Virus record (IMG/VR): IMGVR_UViG_3300048578_000440
Coordinates: 1 to 40,539 of that record
Source of the DNA: a virus
Lineage: Duplodnaviria > Caudoviricetes
Direction: 5' to 3' (one strand)
Length of the DNA: 40,539 bases
In this document: positions 26,912 through 40,539 of the stretch, piece by piece
How positions within the stretch are numbered: the first letter of the stretch is position 1
Layout: every line of letters begins with the position of its first letter
Made by a program: the position numbers and the translations under genes
Notes under the pieces: generated by a model
What the model was told of the DNA's origin: nothing
Seen by the model: only the letters and a program-made list of their open reading frames with translations
Database searches by the model: none

Positions 26912-28792
26912 ATGGCTCAGGGTTTTTTGGATGTCGACAATTCCTCGCAATTGGTCACCCAGGCCTTTTCTGATGCCGCCAGCAAAGCAAACTCGGCGTT
27001 TTCGGCGGCGACAGGGGCTATCGGGCAACTTGCCAATGGTCTGTCCAATTTTACTGTTCCGGATTCGGTTGTGTCCGTGGGCAATGTCTCGACGAACATG
27101 CAGGCGATACCAAGTCCGCCGCAGGTTCCTCGTCCGTCCGTGGATACTGTTTCAGTCGCCGATGCGCCTTCCCTTGACCGCCTGGAAATCCCTGCCGTGC
27201 AACTGCCGGTCTTCACGGCTGTTGCGCCCACGGTATCAATCCCCCAGATGCCGACTGTTGCCGAACCGGAAGATCCAGGACCCGCGCCGAATATTGACGA
27301 TGTCAGCCTGCCGAGCGATCCCGGCGTGGAACTGCCCACACCACCAGGGTTGCCGCAGGTGGAGCTGCCGTCCCTGGTTGATGTCGGGCTGCCTGTATTC
27401 GAGGGTGAGCGTCCCGGAAGGCCGAACATTGACGTGCCGGGCCGGTTGTTTGTCTACGAAGAGGGGGAATTCCGTTCGCCGCTCCAGGAAACCATTGAGG
27501 CAGAGATATACAACGGCCTGTTGTCTGGCGGCGACATTGTGTCCATTTCCGGCATTACAGCCGCGGTTGCCCAGGCCGAGTCCGTGGCGGCACGGACGTT
27601 GCGCATCGAGTTGGCTGCCATCCGCGACGGCTGGTCGGCACGGGGTCAGGACGGCCCAAGCGGCGCGGACAACGATAAGGAGTATCAAGCCAAACAGCGT
27701 TATGCGGATTCGGTCAATGAGGTCACAGCCCAGCTTGTGACCGAACAATGCCGTCTGACGGTGCAGCACCGCGAATTCTTAATGCAGCATGGAATATCCG
27801 CCGTGGGTCTGCGCCTGGAAGGGTTCAATCAGGCACAGGCCCGGGCGCTGGAAGCGGCGCACCATACGGCTGATTTTGGCTATCGCGTGGTGGACATCCA
27901 GGTGTCCGTCTACAATCTCCAGCTCGCCCAATACCAAGCCGACGCAGCCGTGTTTGAGGCCCGCATCCGGGCCGCAGGACTGGCTCTGGATGCTCGTCGT
28001 CTGGAGTTGGAACGGGCGCGGTTGGCCGGGGATTTGCGGAAGCAGGATATCGACGTCTATTTGGCCGAATGCCAGGCCCAGCAAGTTCGCGTTGAGATCT
28101 ACAAGGCGCAAATCCAGGGAGCCATCGCCAAACTTCAGGCGCAGTCTGAAAAAATCCGAGCCTTTGAAGCGAAAGTCGGGGCTTTCACCGCGCATATCAA
28201 CGCGATGGTGGCCCGCTATAACGCCTGGGGCACCCAAATTTCCGCCGAAAAAACCAAAGTGGACCTGTTCCAGGCCCAGGCGTCGGCTCACGCCACGGTG
28301 GTTGGCGCGGCGAAGGTCGCCGTCGACGCCCAGGCGGTTCAGGCGTCTGTCGTGGATTCGGGCAACCGTGGACAGATCGAGCTGTACCGGGCGGAGTTGG
28401 AGAAAGCCAAGGTTGAAATGCAGGGTATGATTGCTGCGGTTGACGCATCCGTCCGCATCTCCTCTGCCGAAGTCCAGGCCTATGAAGCCGCCGTGCATGG
28501 CGTGGCCGCATCCAATGAGAGTGCGCGTGGCATGGCGTCGATCCAGGTACAGCAGGAGTCGATCGTGGCAAACGCGGCCATAGAAACGGCGCGCATTGCG
28601 GTTGAGGCGGCCAAAGCCAAAGCCAGCGTGGCCGAACATGCACTGGCCGCTGCGGCCAGTACCGCGGCGCAATTGGCCGCGTCGGCCATGGCATCGCGTC
28701 ACGCGTCGGCCAGCGTCGGATTCTCTGGCGGCAACAGCAATTCGAGCAGCTTCAGCGAAGCCTACTCGCACGTCGAGCAAATCAGCGCCTAG
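26912..28792 (+). CDS. Putative internal virion / DNA-ejection protein
   Basis: Pro-rich N-terminal half and a long Ala/Gln coiled-coil C-terminal half; lies before the giant gene. Confidence 0.65.
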   Translation: MAQGFLDVDNSSQLVTQAFSDAASKANSAFSAATGAIGQLANGLSNFTVPDSVVSVGNVSTNMQAIPSPPQVPRPSVDTVSVADAPSLDRLEIPAVQLPVFTAVAPTVSIPQMPTVAEPEDPGPAPNIDDVSLPSDPGVELPTPPGLPQVELPSLVDVGLPVFEGERPGRPNIDVPGRLFVYEEGEFRSPLQETIEAEIYNGLLSGGDIVSISGITAAVAQAESVAARTLRIELAAIRDGWSARGQDGPSGADNDKEYQAKQRYADSVNEVTAQLVTEQCRLTVQHREFLMQHGISAVGLRLEGFNQAQARALEAAHHTADFGYRVVDIQVSVYNLQLAQYQADAAVFEARIRAAGLALDARRLELERARLAGDLRKQDIDVYLAECQAQQVRVEIYKAQIQGAIAKLQAQSEKIRAFEAKVGAFTAHINAMVARYNAWGTQISAEKTKVDLFQAQASAHATVVGAAKVAVDAQAVQASVVDSGNRGQIELYRAELEKAKVEMQGMIAAVDASVRISSAEVQAYEAAVHGVAASNESARGMASIQVQQESIVANAAIETARIAVEAAKAKASVAEHALAAAASTAAQLAASAMASRHASASVGFSGGNSNSSSFSEAYSHVEQISA

Positions 28793-29596: not shown

Positions 29597-32500
29597 ATGG
29601 CTGTTGATCTGATCAAGTACCGCGCCGAGAATGCCGGCTTTTACGGCCAGTCTTCCCTGGCCGATGTGGCCGCCGATCTGCACGAGCGCAGCGGTTCGGC
29701 CAAGGCCGGGGTGGCGTTTGAGGATTTCGCGCGCCAAAACGGCTTTGACGCGCAGATAGCCCAGGAAACGCAGCCGAAGCCGCAGCCGCAACAGCAGCCC
29801 GGGTATGGACTTCCGGGCGGTTCGGTGACGGCCGGGGATTACGCCCGGAGCATCGGCGTCGGCCTGGACCAGTTCGGCCAGGTGCTTGGCCGGGGTATGC
29901 AGTGGGTGGGCCTGGACCGCGCCGGCAAGGCCGTCGAAGGCCTCTACAAGGAGCGCGAGACGGCCACGCGCGGGCAGCAGTTCGGAGCCTACAAGGCCGA
30001 GATGGCCAAGCCGTTTGTGCAAGAACGGCCGGACGGCGGCGGCATGTTCGGCTACGGCCTTGGCCCGGGCGTGACGTCGCCGGCCAAAATCCTTGGCACC
30101 ATCGTGGAGAGCGTCCCGGCCATGGCCGCTGCCGGCGGTCCGGCCGTGGCGGCGACCCGGGGCCTGATCGGCCTGGGCCTCAATGCCGGCGTGGCCGGTA
30201 TTGTCGGGTCCGGCCTGGGCGAAGGTGTGATTGGCGGCCTGTATGCGGCCAAGGAAGGCGAGGATCAAATTCTGGAAGCGCCGGATGGCGTGTTGCAGCA
30301 GCATCCGGACTATCAGCAGGCCCTGGCCGCCCTGCCGGCCGACATGCCCGAGGCCGAGCGCCAAGCGTCGGCCAAGGCGTCGGTGGCGCGGGGCGAGGCG
30401 CTGCGCAGCGGCTTGATAGCCGGCGGGGCCACGGCGGTGCTTGGCGCGCCGTCCGGACACTTCCTGGGCAAGTCCATCGGCGGCGAGACCGGCAGGACGC
30501 TGGCCCGCACCATCGGCAAACAAGCCGTGCTGGAAGCCGGCCAGGAAGCCAGCCAGAGCGCGGTGGAGCAGCTTGTCCGCAACGACGCGGCCCGGCGCTA
30601 CATCAACCCGGACCAGTCCATGGGCGAGGGCGTGGCCGAGGCCATGGTGGGCGGCGCGATCACCGGCGGCGTCATGGGCGGCGGCCTGGGCGGGTTTTCC
30701 CACAACCGGGCGGCGTTGCAGTACCGCCAGGACTTCCAGGCGGAAACAGCCAAAGCCATCACGGACGGCTCTGTGGCCGGGCTGGCTGACGATGACCTGG
30801 GCCGGGCCTTCCAGATTGCCGACGGTCTGTACCGCGAAAACCCCGATGAGGGGTTGCAGCAGGTGTTGCTGGGCCTCAATGCCGAGCAGTTCCGGCGGCA
30901 AGGCGCGGCGCGCGGTTTCCCGCTCAACGAATTTCTGGCCGACGACGACGCGGCCCGGGCCGCTGCGGCGCAGCAGGCGGCGCAGCCCCAGGAGGCGCCC
31001 GGCCTCCCCCCCGAGGCTGCGGCCGGGCCGGCCGGCCCGGATCGGGGGGCCGAACTGACGGCGCTGTCCAAGCGGGAATTAAACGACCTGGCTGCCGGCC
31101 TGGGTATTGCCAAGCCGGGACGGATCAAGCGTGATGAGCTGGTGGCGTCGGTGCTGCAGGCCGAGGACGCGGCCCGGCGCTGGAACGATCCTGAGGCCGT
31201 GGCCGCCCGCTACCAGGAGGCCCATGCCGCGCCGTTCCCGGGCCAAGTCGATGGCTTCCTGGAAGGCGTGGCCCCGGTCGCGCTGTCGCAGCAAGCGCCG
31301 GCCGCCGCGCCGGAATCGGGGCAGGCGGCTCCGGACCGGGCGGCGGAACTGTCCGGGCTGGCCTATTCCGAGTTGCGCGACATGGCCGCGTCCCTTGGCG
31401 TGGAAAAGCCCGGGAGGCTCAAGCGCGCCGCTCTGGTACCGGCCATTGTGGCGGCCGAGGAACAGGCCCGGCACTTTTACGATCCGGCCAACCTGGATGC
31501 GCGCTACCAGGAAACCCATGCCGCGCCGTTCCCGGGCGGACTGGATGGCTTTCTGGACGGTGTTGCGCCGGTGGGCCAGCCGCAGCCGGCCGAGGGCAGG
31601 GCCTCGCGCAAACGCCAGCCCAAGGCGGCGGCCGAGCAAGAACCGGCCCAGGCAGGGCAAGCCGCCGCGCCGGAATCGCTGGCGCCGTCGATGGCCCAGG
31701 CTGCCGGACCCACGGGAGAAATTCCGCTGGTCGAAATCGGGGCCACGCCGGAAGCGGTGCAGGAGGCGGAACCGGAAGCGCAGTCCGAGGCGCGCCCGGC
31801 CCTGGTGGAGCAGACTCCGGCCGGGGTGCTGCCGACCGGGGAAATTCCGTTGACGGCGGTGGGCGAGACGCCGGCGGCCGGTGAAAAAGTTGTGGCAGAT
31901 TTGCCACAAAATAAAGGGCAGGAGCCGGGCCGGGACGTTGCTGGATACCCTGCGGTCGAGACTGGACAGCCCCAGGCCGATATGCAGGAGGCGCAAGCGC
32001 CGCCGGCGGCCGAAGACCTCAAGGCCCGGAGCAAGCGGGAACTGAACGACTTGGCCGTGTCCCTGGGGATTGAGCGGCCGGTGGAGATTCGCCGGGATGA
32101 TCTGGTGGGGCGGATCGGGCAGGCGCGGCAGGAGGCGGCGGCCGGATCGGTGCAAGAGCAGCCGGGTGCGGCTGGCGCGCCGCAGACGGCCAAGGTCTGG
32201 TCTGGCGACACGTTGCGGGAGGTGCCTGTTGTTGAGCACGACGGCGTCAAAACCGTCAACGTCATGGGCCAGGGGATGCCGCCGCGCTATGCCGTTTTAA
32301 ACGCTCTTGCCGGTTCAGATGAGCACCAGATTTCGCAGTACAGCGGCAACACCCCGGCGGAAGCGGTCGCCGCCGCGAAACGGCCGCCGGAACCGCCGCA
32401 TCCCATGAATGCCGCCACCCGGGGGCGGGCGTTGCAGGCCATGGCCCCGGACCAGCAAAACGCCCTGGGCAAGGTCCTTGGCATCAAGCCGGGCAGGAAG

Positions 32501-35500
32501 TCGCGGCTGGGGTTCCTGGAAGCGATTTCCGATACGCCGGAACTGAAGCTGCGGGCGGCGTATGACACGGTTGTCGGCGAGGCCGGGCAGCAGGCCGAGG
32601 CGGACAAGTCTCCGGGCGTGGCCACTGGCGAAGCGCAAGGTGATGCCCAGGATCAGGCGGCTGTACCGCCCGGGGACGTCGGGGCTGTTGCCGAGCCAGC
32701 GGCAGAAGTGCCTGCGCAGTCCGAGCCTTCGTCAGCCGATGCTGCGCCGAAGGAAGAGGCCCGGGATGAGCCGGCAGCCGAAGCCGAACAAAACGAGTCC
32801 GCTGCCGTCGAAAGCCGGCCTGAAGAAGCGGCTGGTGCGGCGACCCCGGAGCAAAGCGAAAAGATCGGTCTCGCCCTCGGGGAGAAGATCGGCGGCTCCC
32901 GCAAAGACACGGCTGCGCCGACCGGCCCTCGTGTGCGTTTGCCCGGGAAAGACGACTCCGTGCCTGCCTGGAAAAAGCGGTTCATGGCTGTCCAGGTCAG
33001 TGAAACCGGTTTCCGTTCCGGCGAAGACAAAATCTATTGGTCCATTGCCGACCAAAAGGGCCTGTTACGGACCGGACGATTCAAGTTCGACTCCAAGGAG
33101 GAGGCCGAAGCCGCCATCCCGCTGGCGGCCGTATCCTTGAAGCACCGGGTCACGAAGCGCGGCGAGGCCTGGGAAATTTATCGGAAGGTCACGGACAGAA
33201 AGACCGTAGTCATCAAGGACGGCTTCGCCACGGAGGAAGACGCCAAGCGGTACATGGCCGAACATGCCGAAGACATCCTCAACACCAAGACCGGGTTTGG
33301 CGAGGAAATCCTGGTCAGACCGGAAAAGGTGTTCCGGAAGGGTGCGCCCCGGCGCGAGGGGCCGGCGAAGGGGCAGGACTTCCTGGATGCCTTTGGCTTC
33401 CGTGGCGTGGAGTTTGGGGAGTGGAACGACCAAGACGAACGGCAGGAAGTGCTCAACCATGCCTATGACGGCCTGCTTGATCTGGCCGAACTCCTCAATG
33501 TTCCGCCCAAAGCACTTTCCCTGAACGGGGATCTGGCCCTGGCCTTTGGCTCACGCGGGCGCGGGCTTTCCAGCGCCAAAGCCCATTACGAGCGGGATTA
33601 CGGCGTCATCAACCTGACCAAGCTGACCGGGGCCGGCTCCCTGGCTCATGAGTGGTACCATGCGCTGGATCACTACCTCGGGCGACAGGATACAAAGGCG
33701 TCGTCTGAAAAGGTGGAGAACAAGCGTGGCGATCGGGTTTTCGCCGCCAGTGACGCACCTTCGCGGGACTATTTGAGCCACGGGGCAAGCCGCAAATCCC
33801 AGGTGCGCGAAGCGTTGCGGGCGGCTTATGAAAAGCTGCTTGGCGACATCGCCTACAAGGCGGAACAGTACAAGGAAGACACAGAAAAGGCCGAGCAGTT
33901 TGTCAGTCGCGCCCGGGGCTATCTGGAAAGGAATCTGAAGGACATCCGTACCGGCCTTGCCCAGGATGCGCAGTGGGGAAGAAAGCGCGCGCCGGCCAAG
34001 GCCGGACAGTTGGAACGGTTCGACGCCCTGGCGGAACAGCTTTTGAGCGGCGACAATCTGGCCCTGGAGATGCGCAGCAATGAGGCCGGGGGGCGGCAGC
34101 GCAGCCGGTTTGGCTCCTACCGTTCCAGCAACGACATTCTTGACGGCCTTGCGGCGATCTACAAGGAGGTTCGCGGCCGCAGTGGATTCAATGCGGAACG
34201 GACAGGCCCGTTTAATTCGCTGGCAGCCAATGTCCAGGACTTCGCCAGACGGGCGAAGATGCTGGAAGACGCCAGAAGCAAGACGGAAAAGACCAAGCAG
34301 ATTCCCACGGAGTACCGGCGCGCCGCCTATCTCATGGACCAGGGCAGGACGTCGGACTACTGGAGCGAACCCCACGAAATGGCCGCCCGGGCGTTTTCCT
34401 CCTACGTGGAAGACAGGGTGGCCCAGGATGATGGCCGCAGCGATTTTCTTGTCTACGGCGCAAACAACGCCATGCTGGAATACCGGCTGGTCAACGTCCG
34501 GCCGTTCCCTGAAGGGGCGGAACGCGAAGCCATCAACGCCGCCTTCGACACCTTCTTTCAGACGGTCAAGACGAAGGAGACGGGCCGGGGCGTGGCCATG
34601 TTCCAGAGAGAGGACGGATCAGAGGCTCCTGCCTCCCCCATCACCCGGGCCGTGGCGGCCGAGTTGCGCCAGGGCATTTCGCAGTTTCCGGCCTTGCGGG
34701 GCATCGTGGACGTGTACCAGTCCGAGGCCGACATGCCGGCGGATCTGCGCGAGGCGGTGGAGGATGCCGGGGTGTCCGGGCGGTTCCACGGGGTCTATGA
34801 CGCCGAGACGAAGCGCATTGCCCTGGTGGCCGGGAACATCCCCACGGTCAAGGCAGGGCAGACGGCGTTTGTACAGATGCTGTTGCGCCATGAAGGCCGC
34901 CACGCCGGGTTGGACCGGGTATTGGGCGGCGTCCGGGAGCGCGAAGACTACATGGCCAGGGCGGCCCAGGCGATACCCCGGGAGGTGACGCGCTGGCTCA
35001 CGCGCCACGGCATGGAATCCAACCGCCGCAACCGGGCCGAGGCAGCCGAGGAAATCCTGGTGTCCTGGGCCAAGGACGGCACGGTGCATCGCGCCTTGGA
35101 CCGGCTGCTGTCGAAAATCGCCGCCTGGGTGCGGTCGATCTTCCCGACGCTGGAACTGACCCGGGCCGAACTGCGGCAACTGCTGGCCCAGGCCGACGAC
35201 TTTGTGGACGGCAAAGGTCTGGATTTCATCGCGCCGCCCGGGCAGCCGTTTTCTGCCGCTCCGGCGTTTTCGCGCGGGGAAGGGGCTTCCTGGGCGCAGC
35301 AGGTGGATGATTTTCTGGGCAATCGGTTTCGTCCCCACGAGCGTCTCGACCTTGGCGGAACGCCGCCGGTGATCGGGCTGCTTGGCGGACATGATCTGCC
35401 CCTGCAAATGACCCAGGGGAAAGCGAATAAAATACTGAAGGGGGCGGATGCAGGCGGGAAACACGGGGTTTCACCGGAAGTGCTGAAGCAGTTGCCACAA

Positions 35501-38500
35501 GCGTTGGAGCGACCTGTCGTTGTCCTGAAGTCTGCCACCTGGGCCGATAGTCTGGTGCTGGTGACGGAGTTGCCGCATCAGGGTTCATTCCTAGTCGCAG
35601 CAGTACATCTGAATGTTCGGGAAGGGCGTGCGGAGATCAACGAGGTCGCAAGCGTCCATGCCCGGGGGACACAGCCGCAGTGGGTATCAAACCAGATTCG
35701 TGATGGTGGGTTACTCTACAGGGATAAAACGAAAGTCCCTGGTTGGCAGAGATCTTTCGGGCTGCAATTGCCCACAGAGATGCCAACCAGGGACAAGCGA
35801 AAGATATTCACGGAAGTTGATCTCGTCAAGTACGAACAGGGGCTGCCCCAGAAAGGAAGTGGCCCCCGCTTCGCCCGCACCGGCGACCTGGCCGGCGTCC
35901 CGGACGAAAAGCGCGACGTGGCCACCTGGCTCAAAGACGAAGCCTCGGCCAATGTCCGCTCCATCCTGGCCGGGGTGCATGGTCTGTCGGAAACCGGGGT
36001 GCTGGGCAAGATGGTGCGGTCGCCGGAATACTGGCAGCAGCCGGTGCTCAAGCGCCTGTATGAGACGTTCCGGGACCGCACCGACCGCGCCCATGAACTG
36101 CTGCACCAAGCGTTCGATGTGGGCGACGGCCGCACTATCATCCAGGAAGCCAAGGACGTCCTCAAAGACCCGAAGCAGCGCGAGATTTTGAATGCGGGCG
36201 TGGACCACGCCGACGTCAACGAGGTCGGGCCGGAGGCCATGGAGACGTGGTTTGCTGAGCATGGGGCCAACGAGGCCACAATTGGGCTGTGGCGCATCAT
36301 GCGTGAACGCTACGACATGCTGCTGGACGAACGGCTGGCCTCCTACCGCAAGCTCATCGACAAGGCGCGCAGCGGCTATGAGCGCAAGATCGTGCGGCGG
36401 TTGATCGACGCCGGCATCCCGGCCGACGCGGCCAAGGCTTTCGACGCGGCCGGCTACAACTCCGACAAGACCCTGGCTGACGAACTGGCCCCCTACGCCG
36501 ATGAGGTGAAGGCCGTGGTGGCCGCTGCCCGCAAGGCCGGGGTGACCATCAAGGGCCAACTTTCCGACGTGAAGCTCCACGACGAAAACGGCACCTCTTT
36601 CAGCTTCGCCGAGATGGTGGAAAAAATGGGCCAGTTGCGGGGCTTTTATGCGCCGCGTCTGCGCGAACAGGGCGACTATGTGGTGCGCGGCCAGCGTACT
36701 GGCGCGGACGGGGATATCGAGCGGTTCCGGGCGCACAAGGAATGGCGCAAGTCGGCGGAAAAGCTGCGACTGGAAATGCGGCGCGCCGGTTGGGACATGG
36801 AGCCGGTGGGTAAGCTGGACAAGCTGCCCGAGGCCACCCAGGGGATTCTCAAGACCCTGGAGCTGGCCAAGACGGTGGAAAGCGCGGTCAACCAAGTGGG
36901 CGAGGACGTGGACGCCGGACTTGTTCAAGAGATACTTGAGACATTGGCTGACGAGGTGAAGGCGCGGGGCTTCCGGTCGCAGTCGATCCGGCGCAGCGGC
37001 CGGCACGGCGAGGTGGTGCAAGGCTATTTCAAGGACGCGGTGGAGCGGTTTGCCCGGTATGCCGGGTCCACGGCCTACGGGCTGGCCAAGATGGAAGCGG
37101 CCGAGAAGGCGGCCAAGGTGCTTTTCGGCACTGCCGGCGCGCCGGGCCTGGATATCAAAAAGGAGCGCGACACGTACCGGCTGGCCGTGGACTATCTGGC
37201 TGAGAACCTGCGCAACGCCGAGTCCGGGGACCGGGTTTTTGCCCTGGCCAAGTCGGTTGCCTCGCTCAAATACCTGGGCCTGAATCCCAAAAGCGCGTTG
37301 GTCAACCTTTCGTCCATGGCCACGTCGGTGCCGGCGGCGCTCCATGCCTATGCCATGCAGGGCAAGGGCGGCTGGTCCAGGGTGGGCCGCGAGATCGCCC
37401 GGAGCATGTACGATTACCTGGGCCGCATGACCAAAAAATGGGGCCGGTTTACGGCAGATGAACAGCGGTTTCTGGACGAAATCCGGCGGGAATCCCTGGA
37501 TGATCCGCAGTTCGCCCGGGAGGCGCTTTCCGTCTACCGCGACACGGCCGGCCAGGGCTGGTCCTGGCTCATGGGCAAGTCCATGGCCCTGTTCGGGGCC
37601 ACGGAGCAGCTCAACCGGGGGGCGACGCTCTTGGCCGGCTACCGGCTGGCCCGGGCCGGCGGGGCGGATCATGCCACGGCCGTGGCCCGGGCCAGGGAGA
37701 CGTCGGACCGGGCGCACGGCGTCTATGACCGGGCCACGCAACCGGCCTGGACCTGGGGCACGTCCATCGGGGCGCGGGTCGGGCAGGCGTGGTACGTCTA
37801 CAAGAAATACGGTCACAACTATTTGCAGCTCGTGCATGAGCTGTTTGCCAAAAAGGATTGGCAGGCGGCCACGTTTGCCTTGGCTGCGCCGGCTGTGCTG
37901 GGCGGGTTGGGCGGCCATGTGCTGACCTCGCTGGCTAAAGCGTTGATGGCGGCCGGCGGCGGCGACGATGACCCGGAAAAGTGGCTGTATGATTTCCTGG
38001 GCAAAAACCTCGGCGGCGAGGCCGAAGACCTGGCCCGGTTCGGGCTGCTGGGGCTGGCCACCGGCGCGGACCTGTCCGGCAGCCTGGGGACCATGATCGA
38101 CATGCCGGATACGTGGTCCGACGTGCTTGGCCCCATGGGCGGCCTGGGCAAGGACATGCTTACGGCTGTGGGCTATCTGGCCGGCGGCCAGCCCGGGCGG
38201 GCAGCGGAAAAGGTGTTGCCGTCGGGCGTGGCCAAGGTGCTGCAGGCCGTGCGCGAATCGGACCAGGGCGTGACCACGGGCAAGAACTATCCGGTCCTGG
38301 GCGAAGACGGCAAACCGCTCAAACCGTCGCGCGGCGAATCCGTGGCCAAGGGGCTGGGGTTCCGGCCGCTGCGCGAGGCCCGGGCCAGGGACCGCACCAG
38401 CGAGGCCATTACCGAGGAAAAGCGTTTTGGCGACCGCCGGGATGTGATCTACGCCCGGTTCCGGGCCTTTGCCCTGGACGGCGGCCAGGATGCCGACGAA

Positions 38501-39022
38501 CGGCAGGACTTGGTTGCGGCCGTGGCCGAGTACAACCAGGACGTGGCCGAGGCCGGGCTGACCGGCCGGGTGTCGCCCATCACCAAGGAATCGCTGCTGC
38601 GCCAGACCGAACGGCTGGCCCGGCCCACCAAGCGGGAGCAGGCGCGCCTGAGCGGCCCGGCCGGCCGCGCCGAGACCGCGCCGGCCGTGGCACCTCTGGA
38701 TGCCGGCGACATCGAAGACCTGTCCCACCCGTATTATCAGGTGCGGCGCACCTATCTGGATGCCAAGGGCCGCTATGACGCCTTGCGCGATGCCGGGGAT
38801 ATGGAAGGCGCCATGACCGTGCGCAGCGAAACCCGGCTGCCGCGCCTGCGCGCCCTGGTCGGCCGGGTGCAGTCGATCCATGAGGATATGGCCGGGCTGC
38901 GCAAGCTGCGCCTGGATGATGCCGCGAAAGCCGAGCGCATGGAGCTGTTGCGGGATCGGGAGCGGCGGGAAATGGACCGGGCGGTGCGGGTCTGGGGCGT
39001 TCTGGCGGCGAACGGGGAGTAG
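29597..39022 (+). CDS. Giant large polyvalent protein (internal virion protein)
   Basis: 3141 aa. Gly/Ala-rich membrane-like N-terminus; Rho-N/HeH-like repeats; GEKIGGSRKD (LPD5-like); FGFRGVEFGEW...SLAHEWYHALD...YWSEPHEMAARAF (LPD1/zincin-like); second HEGRH zincin-like motif; LPQALERPVVVLKS (MuF-C/PBECR-like); YAPRLREQGDY (PLxRFG-like) helical C-terminus. Confidence 0.88.
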   Translation: MAVDLIKYRAENAGFYGQSSLADVAADLHERSGSAKAGVAFEDFARQNGFDAQIAQETQPKPQPQQQPGYGLPGGSVTAGDYARSIGVGLDQFGQVLGRGMQWVGLDRAGKAVEGLYKERETATRGQQFGAYKAEMAKPFVQERPDGGGMFGYGLGPGVTSPAKILGTIVESVPAMAAAGGPAVAATRGLIGLGLNAGVAGIVGSGLGEGVIGGLYAAKEGEDQILEAPDGVLQQHPDYQQALAALPADMPEAERQASAKASVARGEALRSGLIAGGATAVLGAPSGHFLGKSIGGETGRTLARTIGKQAVLEAGQEASQSAVEQLVRNDAARRYINPDQSMGEGVAEAMVGGAITGGVMGGGLGGFSHNRAALQYRQDFQAETAKAITDGSVAGLADDDLGRAFQIADGLYRENPDEGLQQVLLGLNAEQFRRQGAARGFPLNEFLADDDAARAAAAQQAAQPQEAPGLPPEAAAGPAGPDRGAELTALSKRELNDLAAGLGIAKPGRIKRDELVASVLQAEDAARRWNDPEAVAARYQEAHAAPFPGQVDGFLEGVAPVALSQQAPAAAPESGQAAPDRAAELSGLAYSELRDMAASLGVEKPGRLKRAALVPAIVAAEEQARHFYDPANLDARYQETHAAPFPGGLDGFLDGVAPVGQPQPAEGRASRKRQPKAAAEQEPAQAGQAAAPESLAPSMAQAAGPTGEIPLVEIGATPEAVQEAEPEAQSEARPALVEQTPAGVLPTGEIPLTAVGETPAAGEKVVADLPQNKGQEPGRDVAGYPAVETGQPQADMQEAQAPPAAEDLKARSKRELNDLAVSLGIERPVEIRRDDLVGRIGQARQEAAAGSVQEQPGAAGAPQTAKVWSGDTLREVPVVEHDGVKTVNVMGQGMPPRYAVLNALAGSDEHQISQYSGNTPAEAVAAAKRPPEPPHPMNAATRGRALQAMAPDQQNALGKVLGIKPGRKSRLGFLEAISDTPELKLRAAYDTVVGEAGQQAEADKSPGVATGEAQGDAQDQAAVPPGDVGAVAEPAAEVPAQSEPSSADAAPKEEARDEPAAEAEQNESAAVESRPEEAAGAATPEQSEKIGLALGEKIGGSRKDTAAPTGPRVRLPGKDDSVPAWKKRFMAVQVSETGFRSGEDKIYWSIADQKGLLRTGRFKFDSKEEAEAAIPLAAVSLKHRVTKRGEAWEIYRKVTDRKTVVIKDGFATEEDAKRYMAEHAEDILNTKTGFGEEILVRPEKVFRKGAPRREGPAKGQDFLDAFGFRGVEFGEWNDQDERQEVLNHAYDGLLDLAELLNVPPKALSLNGDLALAFGSRGRGLSSAKAHYERDYGVINLTKLTGAGSLAHEWYHALDHYLGRQDTKASSEKVENKRGDRVFAASDAPSRDYLSHGASRKSQVREALRAAYEKLLGDIAYKAEQYKEDTEKAEQFVSRARGYLERNLKDIRTGLAQDAQWGRKRAPAKAGQLERFDALAEQLLSGDNLALEMRSNEAGGRQRSRFGSYRSSNDILDGLAAIYKEVRGRSGFNAERTGPFNSLAANVQDFARRAKMLEDARSKTEKTKQIPTEYRRAAYLMDQGRTSDYWSEPHEMAARAFSSYVEDRVAQDDGRSDFLVYGANNAMLEYRLVNVRPFPEGAEREAINAAFDTFFQTVKTKETGRGVAMFQREDGSEAPASPITRAVAAELRQGISQFPALRGIVDVYQSEADMPADLREAVEDAGVSGRFHGVYDAETKRIALVAGNIPTVKAGQTAFVQMLLRHEGRHAGLDRVLGGVREREDYMARAAQAIPREVTRWLTRHGMESNRRNRAEAAEEILVSWAKDGTVHRALDRLLSKIAAWVRSIFPTLELTRAELRQLLAQADDFVDGKGLDFIAPPGQPFSAAPAFSRGEGASWAQQVDDFLGNRFRPHERLDLGGTPPVIGLLGGHDLPLQMTQGKANKILKGADAGGKHGVSPEVLKQLPQALERPVVVLKSATWADSLVLVTELPHQGSFLVAAVHLNVREGRAEINEVASVHARGTQPQWVSNQIRDGGLLYRDKTKVPGWQRSFGLQLPTEMPTRDKRKIFTEVDLVKYEQGLPQKGSGPRFARTGDLAGVPDEKRDVATWLKDEASANVRSILAGVHGLSETGVLGKMVRSPEYWQQPVLKRLYETFRDRTDRAHELLHQAFDVGDGRTIIQEAKDVLKDPKQREILNAGVDHADVNEVGPEAMETWFAEHGANEATIGLWRIMRERYDMLLDERLASYRKLIDKARSGYERKIVRRLIDAGIPADAAKAFDAAGYNSDKTLADELAPYADEVKAVVAAARKAGVTIKGQLSDVKLHDENGTSFSFAEMVEKMGQLRGFYAPRLREQGDYVVRGQRTGADGDIERFRAHKEWRKSAEKLRLEMRRAGWDMEPVGKLDKLPEATQGILKTLELAKTVESAVNQVGEDVDAGLVQEILETLADEVKARGFRSQSIRRSGRHGEVVQGYFKDAVERFARYAGSTAYGLAKMEAAEKAAKVLFGTAGAPGLDIKKERDTYRLAVDYLAENLRNAESGDRVFALAKSVASLKYLGLNPKSALVNLSSMATSVPAALHAYAMQGKGGWSRVGREIARSMYDYLGRMTKKWGRFTADEQRFLDEIRRESLDDPQFAREALSVYRDTAGQGWSWLMGKSMALFGATEQLNRGATLLAGYRLARAGGADHATAVARARETSDRAHGVYDRATQPAWTWGTSIGARVGQAWYVYKKYGHNYLQLVHELFAKKDWQAATFALAAPAVLGGLGGHVLTSLAKALMAAGGGDDDPEKWLYDFLGKNLGGEAEDLARFGLLGLATGADLSGSLGTMIDMPDTWSDVLGPMGGLGKDMLTAVGYLAGGQPGRAAEKVLPSGVAKVLQAVRESDQGVTTGKNYPVLGEDGKPLKPSRGESVAKGLGFRPLREARARDRTSEAITEEKRFGDRRDVIYARFRAFALDGGQDADERQDLVAAVAEYNQDVAEAGLTGRVSPITKESLLRQTERLARPTKREQARLSGPAGRAETAPAVAPLDAGDIEDLSHPYYQVRRTYLDAKGRYDALRDAGDMEGAMTVRSETRLPRLRALVGRVQSIHEDMAGLRKLRLDDAAKAERMELLRDRERREMDRAVRVWGVLAANGE
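31035..31575 (+). repeat. Approximately 294-bp tandem duplication inside the giant gene
   Basis: PDR.AEL..L...EL...A..LG..KPGR.KR..LV......E..AR...DP....ARYQE.HAAPFPG..DGFL.GVAPV occurs twice at both DNA and protein level. Confidence 0.85.
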
Positions 39023-39031
39023 GGGGACGGT

Positions 39032-39682
39032 ATGTCGTTATCGGACCGCATTGAATACCGGACGTACAAAATCACTCTGATTGAGCCGATATTGGGCTCG
39101 TTGCCGTCGCAACGGCAGGTGTACCAGGATTTGGTGGCGGCCAGGGCTCCGGAACCCGACGTGGAGGGGGCGGAGGAGGCTGCCATGTTGCCGGAGGGCG
39201 CGGATGAACGCACGACCGTGTTTCTGCGCAACCAGGACGGGTGGTGTTCCATCCTGGATTACCAGTTCTTCGGGTTTCTGAAGGAGGCCGGCAATACGCT
39301 CAAGGATATTGTGCAGCATGAAGCCATGGTCAAACGGACAAAAACCACGAAACAGGGCATTGCCGCCCTGCGCAACAAGCTGACCCGGTTTCTCTTTTGC
39401 GGCCCCCGGATTATTCCGCTGCAAAAGGAACCGAACGGGATCTTCCGGAGGCCGCTGCGGCGGATCACCAAGGAGGGGCCTATGAGCTGCATCGCCACCT
39501 CCGAGATCATCAACGCCGGGGTGTCCTTTGACGTCTGGATCGGGCTTTTGCCGCACGGCGAGGTGCAATGGGGCGTTGTGGAGCAGCTTTTGGAATATGG
39601 TCAGATTAAAGGGCTTGGTCAGTTTCGGGGCGGGGGATTTGGTCGGTTCGCCTTTGACCTTGTCTCCCAGGGTGCAATGTAA
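39032..39682 (+). CDS. Stand-alone RAMP / Cas7-like (Csf2/Csm3-like) RNA-binding protein
   Basis: RAMP hallmarks in the expected order: beta1 YKITLIEPILGSLP; helix ILDYQFFGFLKEA (equivalent to IPGSSLKG.LR); SEIINAGVSFDVWI; C-terminal Gly-rich loop GLGQFRGGGFGRF. Confidence 0.8.
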   Translation: MSLSDRIEYRTYKITLIEPILGSLPSQRQVYQDLVAARAPEPDVEGAEEAAMLPEGADERTTVFLRNQDGWCSILDYQFFGFLKEAGNTLKDIVQHEAMVKRTKTTKQGIAALRNKLTRFLFCGPRIIPLQKEPNGIFRRPLRRITKEGPMSCIATSEIINAGVSFDVWIGLLPHGEVQWGVVEQLLEYGQIKGLGQFRGGGFGRFAFDLVSQGAM

Positions 39683-39683
39683 A

Positions 39684-39736
39684 AGCTAGGTCCGGTATCG
39701 TTGCGTGCCGTGACGCGCGGCTCTATCGATCGAGCC
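39684..39736 (+). ncRNA. Candidate guide-like RNA: eight 5-nt VGY-NN units plus a 3' hairpin
   Basis: AGC-TA GGT-CC GGT-AT CGT-TG CGT-GC CGT-GA CGC-GC GGC-TC (39684-39723), closed by stem GGCTC/GAGCC (39719-39736). It begins 1 nt after the RAMP stop codon. Confidence 0.6.
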
Positions 39737-39762
39737 CTTCAATCTGGCCGTAGGATGGCTGT

Positions 39763-40539
39763 ATGGACCATGTGGTGCTGTTTGATTGCCATGGGCTCAA
39801 GGCCCGGCTCAGCCCGACGCAGTGCAGGGCGAACCGGACCCGGCCGGTGTCGTCTTCTCTGGCGAATCTGCCGACGCGGCCGATGGCCTGCCTGTCCTGC
39901 ACGCAATGGCATGAATTTGATCCGCCGGCGAATGTGACAGACCCGGCCGAACTGGCCCTGGCCGAGACCCTGGCCACGTTGTGGCCCGACATTGATGAGG
40001 GCAGGCTCGGGGTCAAGCATATCCTGACGGCCTATAACCGGCGGGTGATGCCGGAATTGCGCAAACGCCGATCCCTGCTGATGGCGGACTGGCTGGTCAT
40101 GCTCGGCTTCCGGGTGCTCCACCAGGAACAGTTCCAGGGTGTGAGCGGCTTGCGCTGCCTGTGGGTGGATTCGCTGGTGGAAGGATTCGTCCGGGAAAAG
40201 GGATTTGCCGTGCTGCAGCGTACCGATGTTGCGGCCCTGGATCGTTTGCTGGGGGTGGTCGGCTTGAAGCAGGACGCGCCGCTGCCAGAGGAAGAGCCGG
40301 AGATATCGGAAGAGCGTGAGGCGGCTGAGCCGGCGGCCACGGAGGAAGCGGCAGCGGTTGCACAGCCTTTTGTCCGGTCCAAACCATTGGCCGGCGCTGC
40401 TCCCTGCCCCGAATGCCTGTTTTTCAGGCCGATGCCGACGTATCATGCCGGCGTTGAAGGGATACGCCTGTGCTGGGCGGACGCCACCTTGTGGGAATTC
40501 GCCTGCTTCAAGCCCCGTCAGGAGGATATGGCATGCTGA
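39763..40539 (+). CDS. Hypothetical Cys-rich (putative Zn-binding) protein
   Basis: N-terminal C..C..CxxC (FDCHG...TQC...ACLSC), acidic linker, C-terminal CPEC...C...C; ends at the last base of the window. Confidence 0.65.
   Translation: MDHVVLFDCHGLKARLSPTQCRANRTRPVSSSLANLPTRPMACLSCTQWHEFDPPANVTDPAELALAETLATLWPDIDEGRLGVKHILTAYNRRVMPELRKRRSLLMADWLVMLGFRVLHQEQFQGVSGLRCLWVDSLVEGFVREKGFAVLQRTDVAALDRLLGVVGLKQDAPLPEEEPEISEEREAAEPAATEEAAAVAQPFVRSKPLAGAAPCPECLFFRPMPTYHAGVEGIRLCWADATLWEFACFKPRQEDMAC

Follow-up and report, generated by a model that had tools for sequence, protein, structure and literature searches.

VIPR, a phage RNA-guided system described in 2026 preprints (10.64898/2026.04.26.720920), is the closest described counterpart of the locus considered here, and its published basis also includes the main texts of 10.64898/2026.10.15.759431 and 10.64898/2026.10.21.760802. 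Repeats of the system were searched for from four units up, with 9-16 units called typical, and the methods list YNNNG repeats (equivalent to NGY/NN) among the alternatives, along with single-vrRNA loci and staggered arrays (10.64898/2026.04.26.720920). In the SUSP1 Vipr protein, according to passages of 10.64898/2026.04.26.720927, H17 and D177 read G1 of the repeat, W178 reads G2 and R179 reads Y3. The present locus resembles VIPR in its phage-borne stand-alone RAMP protein, its predicted pentamer-repeat RNA, its accessory gene, the 1-nt wobble skip of its target and the lack of a self-target (10.64898/2026.04.26.720920), and it almost certainly belongs to this system. The variable dinucleotides (NN) of its likely guide match a phage-derived cluster gene that is fixed in the presumed host genus, and the loaded Vipr protein would probably bind this DNA and silence the gene without cutting.

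The vipr locus and its pentamer tract

The window, that is, the whole 40,539-nt stretch of DNA analysed, is a virus record with terminase, portal, capsid, helicase and endolysin genes. For many of these genes, among them that for Vipr (87%), a prophage of the Solidesulfovibrio sp. DCME chromosome carries close counterparts, which points to Solidesulfovibrio as the host genus. Within this record the vipr locus is minimal (vipr and vap) and no cas operon; it lies on the late-gene strand immediately behind virion genes and has a virion gene and the vap candidate as its neighbours. The gene directly upstream (window 29597-39022) encodes a 3141-aa polyvalent virion protein with LPD1, MuF_C and repeated Rho_N domains. 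The features of the locus are as follows.

39032-39682, plus strand: vipr gene, encoding a 216-aa stand-alone RAMP protein with a G-loop, GLGQFRGGGFGRF (open reading frame, structure model and profile homology)
39673-39682, plus strand: lead-in pentamers tgcAA tgtAA, within the 3' end of vipr including its stop codon, one base out of phase with the tract
39684-39718, plus strand: putative vrRNA guide core of seven NGY-NN units, NN = TA CC AT TG GC GA GC (unit reading; NN invariant in 9/9 close loci; exact skip-1 target)
39719-39723, plus strand: eighth unit, ggcTC, also the 5' arm of a possible stem; half-matched, the target having TT
39719-39736, plus strand: possible 5-bp stem GGCTC / GAGCC, tentative
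39728-39737, plus strand: tail motif G-R-Y-C-R-A-G-C-C-C, likely a 3' element of the RNA
39763-40539, plus strand: vap candidate, 258 aa, with two Cys4 zinc-finger-like ends and a central domain that is weakly winged-helix-like

The AlphaFold model of Vipr (pLDDT 88.9) finds its best PDB matches among Cas7/Csm3 RAMPs (best E 4.9e-7) and, in BFVD, among phage RAMP-like models (best E 9e-16); scans of Pfam, PHROG and NCBIfam gave no match, and the family numbers 2437 representatives at E<=0.001. Compared as single sequences, Vipr and SUSP1 Vipr show weak similarity from which the G-loop alone is recovered, and HHalign of a 113-sequence Vipr profile against one of the SUSP1 Vipr family built from 58 sequences gives a probability of 97.5% with E 5.8e-12 over 184 columns, which is full length. 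Such full-length homology of a RAMP-fold gene to the SUSP1 Vipr family identifies the locus as a VIPR system composed of Vipr, one vrRNA and a zinc-finger vap. In the alignment, SUSP1 R179 corresponds to R199 (109/113), W178 to F198 (W in 90 and F in 21 of 113 sequences), D177 to Q197 (Q in 109/113 family sequences) and H17 to a gap beside S/T23; the loss of both G1-reading residues would fit a repeat whose position 1 is free. A 55% identical vipr gene occurs in G155 as two equally scoring copies at distant positions (L289, L290).

The tract at 39684-39723 reads agcTA ggtCC ggtAT cgtTG cgtGC cgtGA cgcGC ggcTC. A sequence-only reading of this DNA had described eight consecutive pentamers starting 1 nt after the RAMP stop, with about 0.05 chance hits expected per window, and all three statements are borne out: the pentamers are present as claimed, the stop codon ends at 39682 with 39683 as the single base before unit 1, and runs of at least 8 units turn up 0.01 times per window in order-1 and 0.06 times in order-5 Markov controls, with 100 controls for each order. 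No other run of at least seven N-G-Y-N-N units occurs on either strand of the window, the runner-up having six. The VGY triplet of that reading had to be relaxed to NGY, as position 1 is free among 590 family units (A 0.29, C 0.18, G 0.37, T 0.16), the only position whose frequencies are informative, since positions 2-3 are fixed by the selection of units. Eight units are in phase and seven are conserved, which is below the 9-16 typical of VIPR, and a 39-base spacer separates the tract from the 258-aa open reading frame at 39763-40539. The lead-in pentamers, present in 9/9 close loci compared, are set off from unit 1 by a 1-nt phase shift (39683) and resemble the boundaries of the staggered arrays of relatives, with ..AA-[N]-agc/ggc also seen in L005, L006, L007 and L008.

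Among the 126 vipr family loci fetched, 95 were distinct with at least 150 nt downstream, and an NGY-NN run (score at least 5) lies within 350 nt behind vipr in 79 of these 95, compared with 15 of 671 control windows. Nine close loci, with Vipr proteins 86-88% identical and very different upstream genes, share the first seven NN pairs identically, and within units 1-7 variation is confined to the first and third triplet positions; the NN of unit 8 varies among relatives. A contig that is 95-99% alike differs at 12 of 401 bases, none of which falls within the eight units. In relatives at 55-63% protein identity the arrays are different and longer, are broken by 1-nt phase shifts, vary freely in their NN pairs and mostly keep the same tail motif. 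The expectation that NN pairs would vary among orthologous loci stands at 55-63% identity but fails among the nine close loci, where the seven pairs are frozen. Although NN pairs as conserved as the triplets had been named in advance as evidence against a guide, such freezing among close relatives is accounted for by conservation of the target gene and leaves the guide reading intact. From its sequence features, the tract is likely the guide RNA (vrRNA) of a phage VIPR system.

All close loci retain the tail motif, as do L005, L006, L008 and L049; it shows one change in L101 and was not seen in L007. Both of the hairpins that had been proposed to close the tract are present as written but are weakly supported as an RNA element. 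In the first, 83% of cells are paired over 7 loci with one compensatory change and covariation not above shuffles, and two bases of its 3' arm are changed in the 95-99% alike contig; in the second (39747-39759), which contains the likely ribosome-binding site of the next gene, 61% of cells are paired, again with covariation not above shuffles. The tract region folds no better than shuffled sequence (z -1.49 to +0.30), and the first stem is absent from the minimum-energy fold of the full tract. The single Rfam match was sub-threshold and was taken as chance.

The vap candidate stands behind the guide in 11 related loci with 8 invariant Cys, and its central domain is absent in 4/12 sequences. 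Top PDB matches of its model (pLDDT 62) are mostly winged-helix proteins (best E 0.057); no nuclease was seen in sequence or model, Pfam, PHROG and NCBIfam gave no match, and the ESM Atlas no usable one. In one prophage (L042, 10658-10900) only the first few codons of vap are left before unrelated sequence begins, with vipr and the guide intact.

The probable chromosomal target and its cluster

Read with one base skipped between successive NN pairs, the guide has a specific natural target, which upholds the idea that the constant triplets are protein handles and the dinucleotides a gapped target, an idea equal to the published VIPR code. The pattern TA-n-CC-n-AT-n-TG-n-GC-n-GA-n-GC is exact in 15 of the 301 genomes of the family to which the Solidesulfovibrio genome G001 belongs, compared with 2 for the reversed pattern. 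Fourteen of these 15 matches share one site in a single orthologous gene, where they lie antisense to the codons for ASAQIGY and each skipped base is a wobble base; one falls elsewhere. The gene encodes a 639-aa virion-type protein (phrog_10969) and is present in 25/25 Solidesulfovibrio genomes, of which 18 match the site exactly, 1 differs by a single mismatch and 6 have no match within one mismatch; the 3 of these 6 that were examined read ATAQIGF, with 2/14 mismatches. ATAQIGF marks one host lineage (L251, L252 and L263, from G044, G247 and G186), in which escape by amino-acid change, or plain drift, is possible. With unit 8 included, 15/16 positions match in 14/17 cluster regions, and the L002 and L004 guides, which carry TT in unit 8, match at 16/16.

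Several controls bear on specificity. Among 2520 orderings of the seven NN pairs, the real order alone matches the G001 cluster, and none of 197 seven-unit runs from distant loci matches any cluster region. Because the reversed-pattern control can understate background, as the L006/L101 guides indicate, weight is put on the off-cluster rate (1/301 genomes) and on the permutations. The sequence-only reading had allowed for either a contiguous or a skipped-base target; the skipped-base form gave the exact match, and the contiguous form was rejected together with 2-skip and 3-skip readings, which across 18 cluster regions came no closer than 3, 2 and 3 mismatches of 14, respectively, a comparison biased to skip 1 for the window guide, around whose match the regions were chosen, but not for the L049 and L005 guides. 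The VIPR skip code is thereby confirmed by natural sequences of a Vipr clade that is distant and whose handle is relaxed to NGY.

The search that the same reading had proposed for the phage, its host and related phages yielded an exact skip-1 site in the presumed host genus and none in viral sequence of the phage's own kind: the window has no such site with <=3 mismatches, and four related virus records have none within one mismatch. The phage encodes its own homologue of the target, and the target itself lies in a cluster of G001.

26912-28792 of the window, plus strand: the phage's own homologue of the target gene (phrog_10969), unmatched by the guide
G001:C1 about 4622900-4640450 (L217:6908 to L218:4443): head-tail cluster of about 17.5 kb
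G001:C1 28985-31400 (L299): terminase genes at a second locus

The phage homologue is 32-35% identical to the target protein, and its equivalent site near 28700 has 4/14 NN mismatches (5/16 with unit 8); four other phage homologues have 7-10/16. A scan of IMG/VR with the 14-base pattern returned 88 exact matches, of which L146 alone lies in a homologue of a cluster gene; this unrelated low-GC virus record (1501-1520) matches at 15/16 in a 30% homologue of the target, with a shared ASAxIGY motif. The other 87, lacking homology to cluster genes, were rejected as targets and treated as chance. G001 and G286 each hold a prophage bearing the same seven NN pairs as well as the exact chromosomal site. 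Taken together, the cluster gene is very likely the selected target of the guide.

In G001 the cluster comprises genes for a portal, an FmdB-type zinc ribbon, a major capsid, a phrog_3758 virion protein, the 639-aa phrog_10969 target, phrog_644 and a tail protein. The large terminase is found at the second locus in 24/25 genus genomes, with the small terminase beside it where in view, and both terminases adjoin the cluster in G122, which lies outside the genus sample (L244, L300). The small terminase open reading frames (186-215 aa) are full length and match phrog_51 TerS, and their N-terminus is presumably a DNA-binding helix-turn-helix. Gene order is kept in the cluster regions fetched, and the flanking response-regulator gene is the same in 14/16. 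The dN/dS values of six cluster genes against seven genomes range from 0.04 to 0.59, with the target at 0.18-0.55 and without stops; the start of one cluster gene was probably called too early, and stops appear there. No integrase, replication or lysis genes were seen in the G001 cluster by open reading frame lists and PHROG scan, no tRNA in four cluster regions, and no solo vrRNA with the tail of this guide in the cluster or terminase regions scanned. At E<=1e-30 the capsid gene occurs in 15/201 family genomes; the giant virion protein of a prophage, searched for across the genus, occurs in 5/25 genomes only. The window phage and the cluster share tail-side genes at 31-76% identity, with the phage portal and capsid coming from other families, and the target protein groups in the ESM Atlas with unnamed, mostly viral clusters.

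On the basis of intact head-tail genes, purifying selection, split loci and no integrase seen, the cluster is regarded as a candidate domesticated phage of GTA-like layout that is fixed in the genus chromosome. Near the G001 terminase locus (L299:14762-15989) lie what we take to be a small Mor-type activator-like gene and an XRE-type regulator, which are possible regulators of the GTA-like element.

Guides of sister loci were also compared with the cluster, 15 guides of at least 5 units having been parsed from six sister loci, two of them near duplicates. The first 10 of the 12 units of L049 guide 2 match the same gene 138 nt away, at 20/20 in 7/17 regions and wobble-aligned on YLKSAEVSIK; in 201 whole genomes this guide has 6 matches within one mismatch (3 exact), all in the target gene, compared with 0 for controls. 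The first 7 of the 8 units of L005 guide 1 match the next gene (phrog_644) at 14/14 in 9/17 regions. L049 guide 1 reaches 12/14 in the same gene, which is suggestive only, since 2/12 shuffles equal it. All matched guides pair with the coding strand (antisense to mRNA; three same-strand cases) and all fall at the tail-side end of the cluster, the part homologous to the phage. For 12/15 sister guides no convincing target was found in the sequences searched. The first L006/L101 guide was set aside, as its many one-mismatch matches are typical of codon bias, and the second, searched in five genomes, has no match with two or fewer mismatches; the low-complexity L008 guide 2 does no better than shuffles. 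The L005 guide (L005:5660-5700) is also exact in the phrog_644 gene of the VIPR-bearing phages L001, L003, L008 and L049.

Proposed mechanism and alternatives

It is envisaged that vipr, the guide and vap would be co-transcribed and the guide released by cutting close to the 1-nt phase shift that follows the stop codon. One Vipr would then occupy each pentamer, as the SUSP1 structures suggest, gripping G2 and Y3 and leaving position 1 free, since neither of the G1-reading residues of SUSP1 is retained in this protein. As the sequence match shows, the 7-8 NN pairs are complementary to the coding strand at the (N)ASAQIGY codons with each wobble base skipped, and binding may block transcription of the target gene and of the tail-side genes behind it. 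That silencing works by DNA binding appears quite probable from this analysis, and silencing rather than cutting is likely because the prophage and the exact site are co-resident in G001 and G286 and no nuclease was seen in vap. The least certain step concerns purpose: the tail-side parts of a GTA-like particle, being homologous to those of the phage, would compete with or poison phage assembly, and silencing them would protect yield. Protection of phage assembly from homologous host-particle parts is, as a motive, evenly poised between true and false.

The alternative carrying the most weight, though an unlikely one, is that a real vrRNA is directed against mobile relatives of the cluster, phages or satellites, its chromosomal match being incidental to the conservation of a protein motif. 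In the published work VIPR acts on satellites, prophages and other VIPR loci (10.64898/2026.04.26.720920), and both the 15/16 site in the L146 homologue and the exact L005 matches in four phage loci point the same way, indicating that this clade does have mobile targets. However, among the 88 exact IMG/VR matches L146 is the only one in a homologue of a cluster gene, the L049 20-base pattern has 0 exact matches in IMG/VR yet matches the cluster, scanning with a peptide pattern brought up no viral gene closely related to the target, and prophage homologues within the genus differ at 7-10/16 positions. Still less probable is a role in lysogen upkeep, in which the cluster would be targeted to stop GTA-like production or lysis of the carrier cell rather than to aid virion assembly. 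The two genomes that hold a VIPR prophage with the exact site would suit such a role, as would the classification of several close vipr loci as proviruses, but the position of vipr on the late-gene strand and the lack of a sigma-70-like promoter in 38800-40539 (where no relevant terminator was found either) suggest late lytic expression, and the guides converge on tail-side genes homologous to the phage.

The antisense orientation of every matched guide raises the further question of whether the complex binds the cluster mRNA instead, blocking translation or destabilising the message, and the closest solved folds are indeed RNA-targeting type VII and III Cas7 proteins. This is nevertheless improbable to a high degree, as SUSP1 VIPR binds dsDNA and silences from either strand (10.64898/2026.04.26.720920 and passages of 10.64898/2026.04.26.720927), and three same-strand cases are too few to establish a bias. 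Finally, 14 specified bases do recur at random in large collections, as the 88 IMG/VR occurrences illustrate, so the periodicity and the match might be chance or the tract a dead relic; this is very hard to reconcile with the family-wide coupling of NGY-NN runs to vipr, the freezing of NN pairs while handles vary, the convergence of three independent guides on two adjacent genes and the permutation control, and it is the least probable explanation of all.

Under the preferred reading, silencing of a host-fixed cluster gene through DNA binding, the target would be a vertically inherited host cluster of phage origin and not a rival mobile element, and sulfate reducers would gain a candidate element of GTA-like type. 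A guide that phages keep against such a gene set would be evidence of conflict, with a bearing on the reasons for which bacteria retain GTA-like genes. More tentatively, and at somewhat less than an even chance, temperate Solidesulfovibrio phages may have repeatedly programmed guides against a genus-wide domesticated GTA-like particle that serves as an anti-phage device, its tail-side proteins poisoning or hijacking phage assembly, which would make VIPR an RNA-guided counter-defence; if true, VIPR guides could be used as a map to find domesticated elements.

Comparison with known systems

Searches of the open-licence PMC and bioRxiv literature found nothing on this cluster or on VIPR acting against a GTA. 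The string 'Desulfo' does not occur in the supplement text of 10.64898/2026.04.26.720920 or in the main texts of 10.64898/2026.10.15.759431 and 10.64898/2026.10.21.760802, although the data tables, with 667 loci listed, may include the present ones, L042 among them, and 'gene transfer agent' does not occur in the main text of 10.64898/2026.10.15.759431.

Within VIPR, the present locus differs in having 7-8 units instead of the published 9-16, a free position 1 where GGY/NN or related repeats were published, and a guide frozen across phages at 86-88% Vipr identity. Unlike the SUSP1 system, its tail consists of about 10 conserved bases without sign of the SUSP1 pseudoknot, and its vap, with two zinc-finger-like ends, shows no similarity to Vap1. 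There is also a likeness to SUSP1 acting against F5 satellites, where, as the main text of 10.64898/2026.10.15.759431 describes, the guide is likewise fixed on amino-acid-determining positions and the chromosomal element shares structural genes with the phage. The same text presents F5 as mobile, encoding a recombinase (the target) and borrowing its capsid, whereas the cluster here has its own portal and capsid, no integrase seen, the same chromosomal place and virion genes as the part targeted. The marks of a satellite, an integrase or recombinase and a patchy distribution, were likewise not found, the target gene being present in 25/25 genomes with a common flank in 14/16.

The cluster is like GTAs, as passages of PMC11841831, PMC6854486 and PMC12946183 describe them, in being vertically inherited, with intact head-tail genes, split loci, no replication or integration genes seen and purifying selection. 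It differs in its TerS, which is full length at 186-215 aa, whereas that of known GTAs is shortened and without a DNA-binding domain, according to passages of PMC6854486 and PMC11841831. With class 1 CRISPR Cas7/Csm3 proteins, Vipr shares the RAMP fold with a G-loop, but it differs in its 10-15% identity, in giving no Cas family match in the scans and in a 5-nt, non-contiguous code. The published work already covers VIPR with its code, as well as repeats of NGY type, loci with a single guide and fixed, wobble-aligned targets; what is new is the kind of target.
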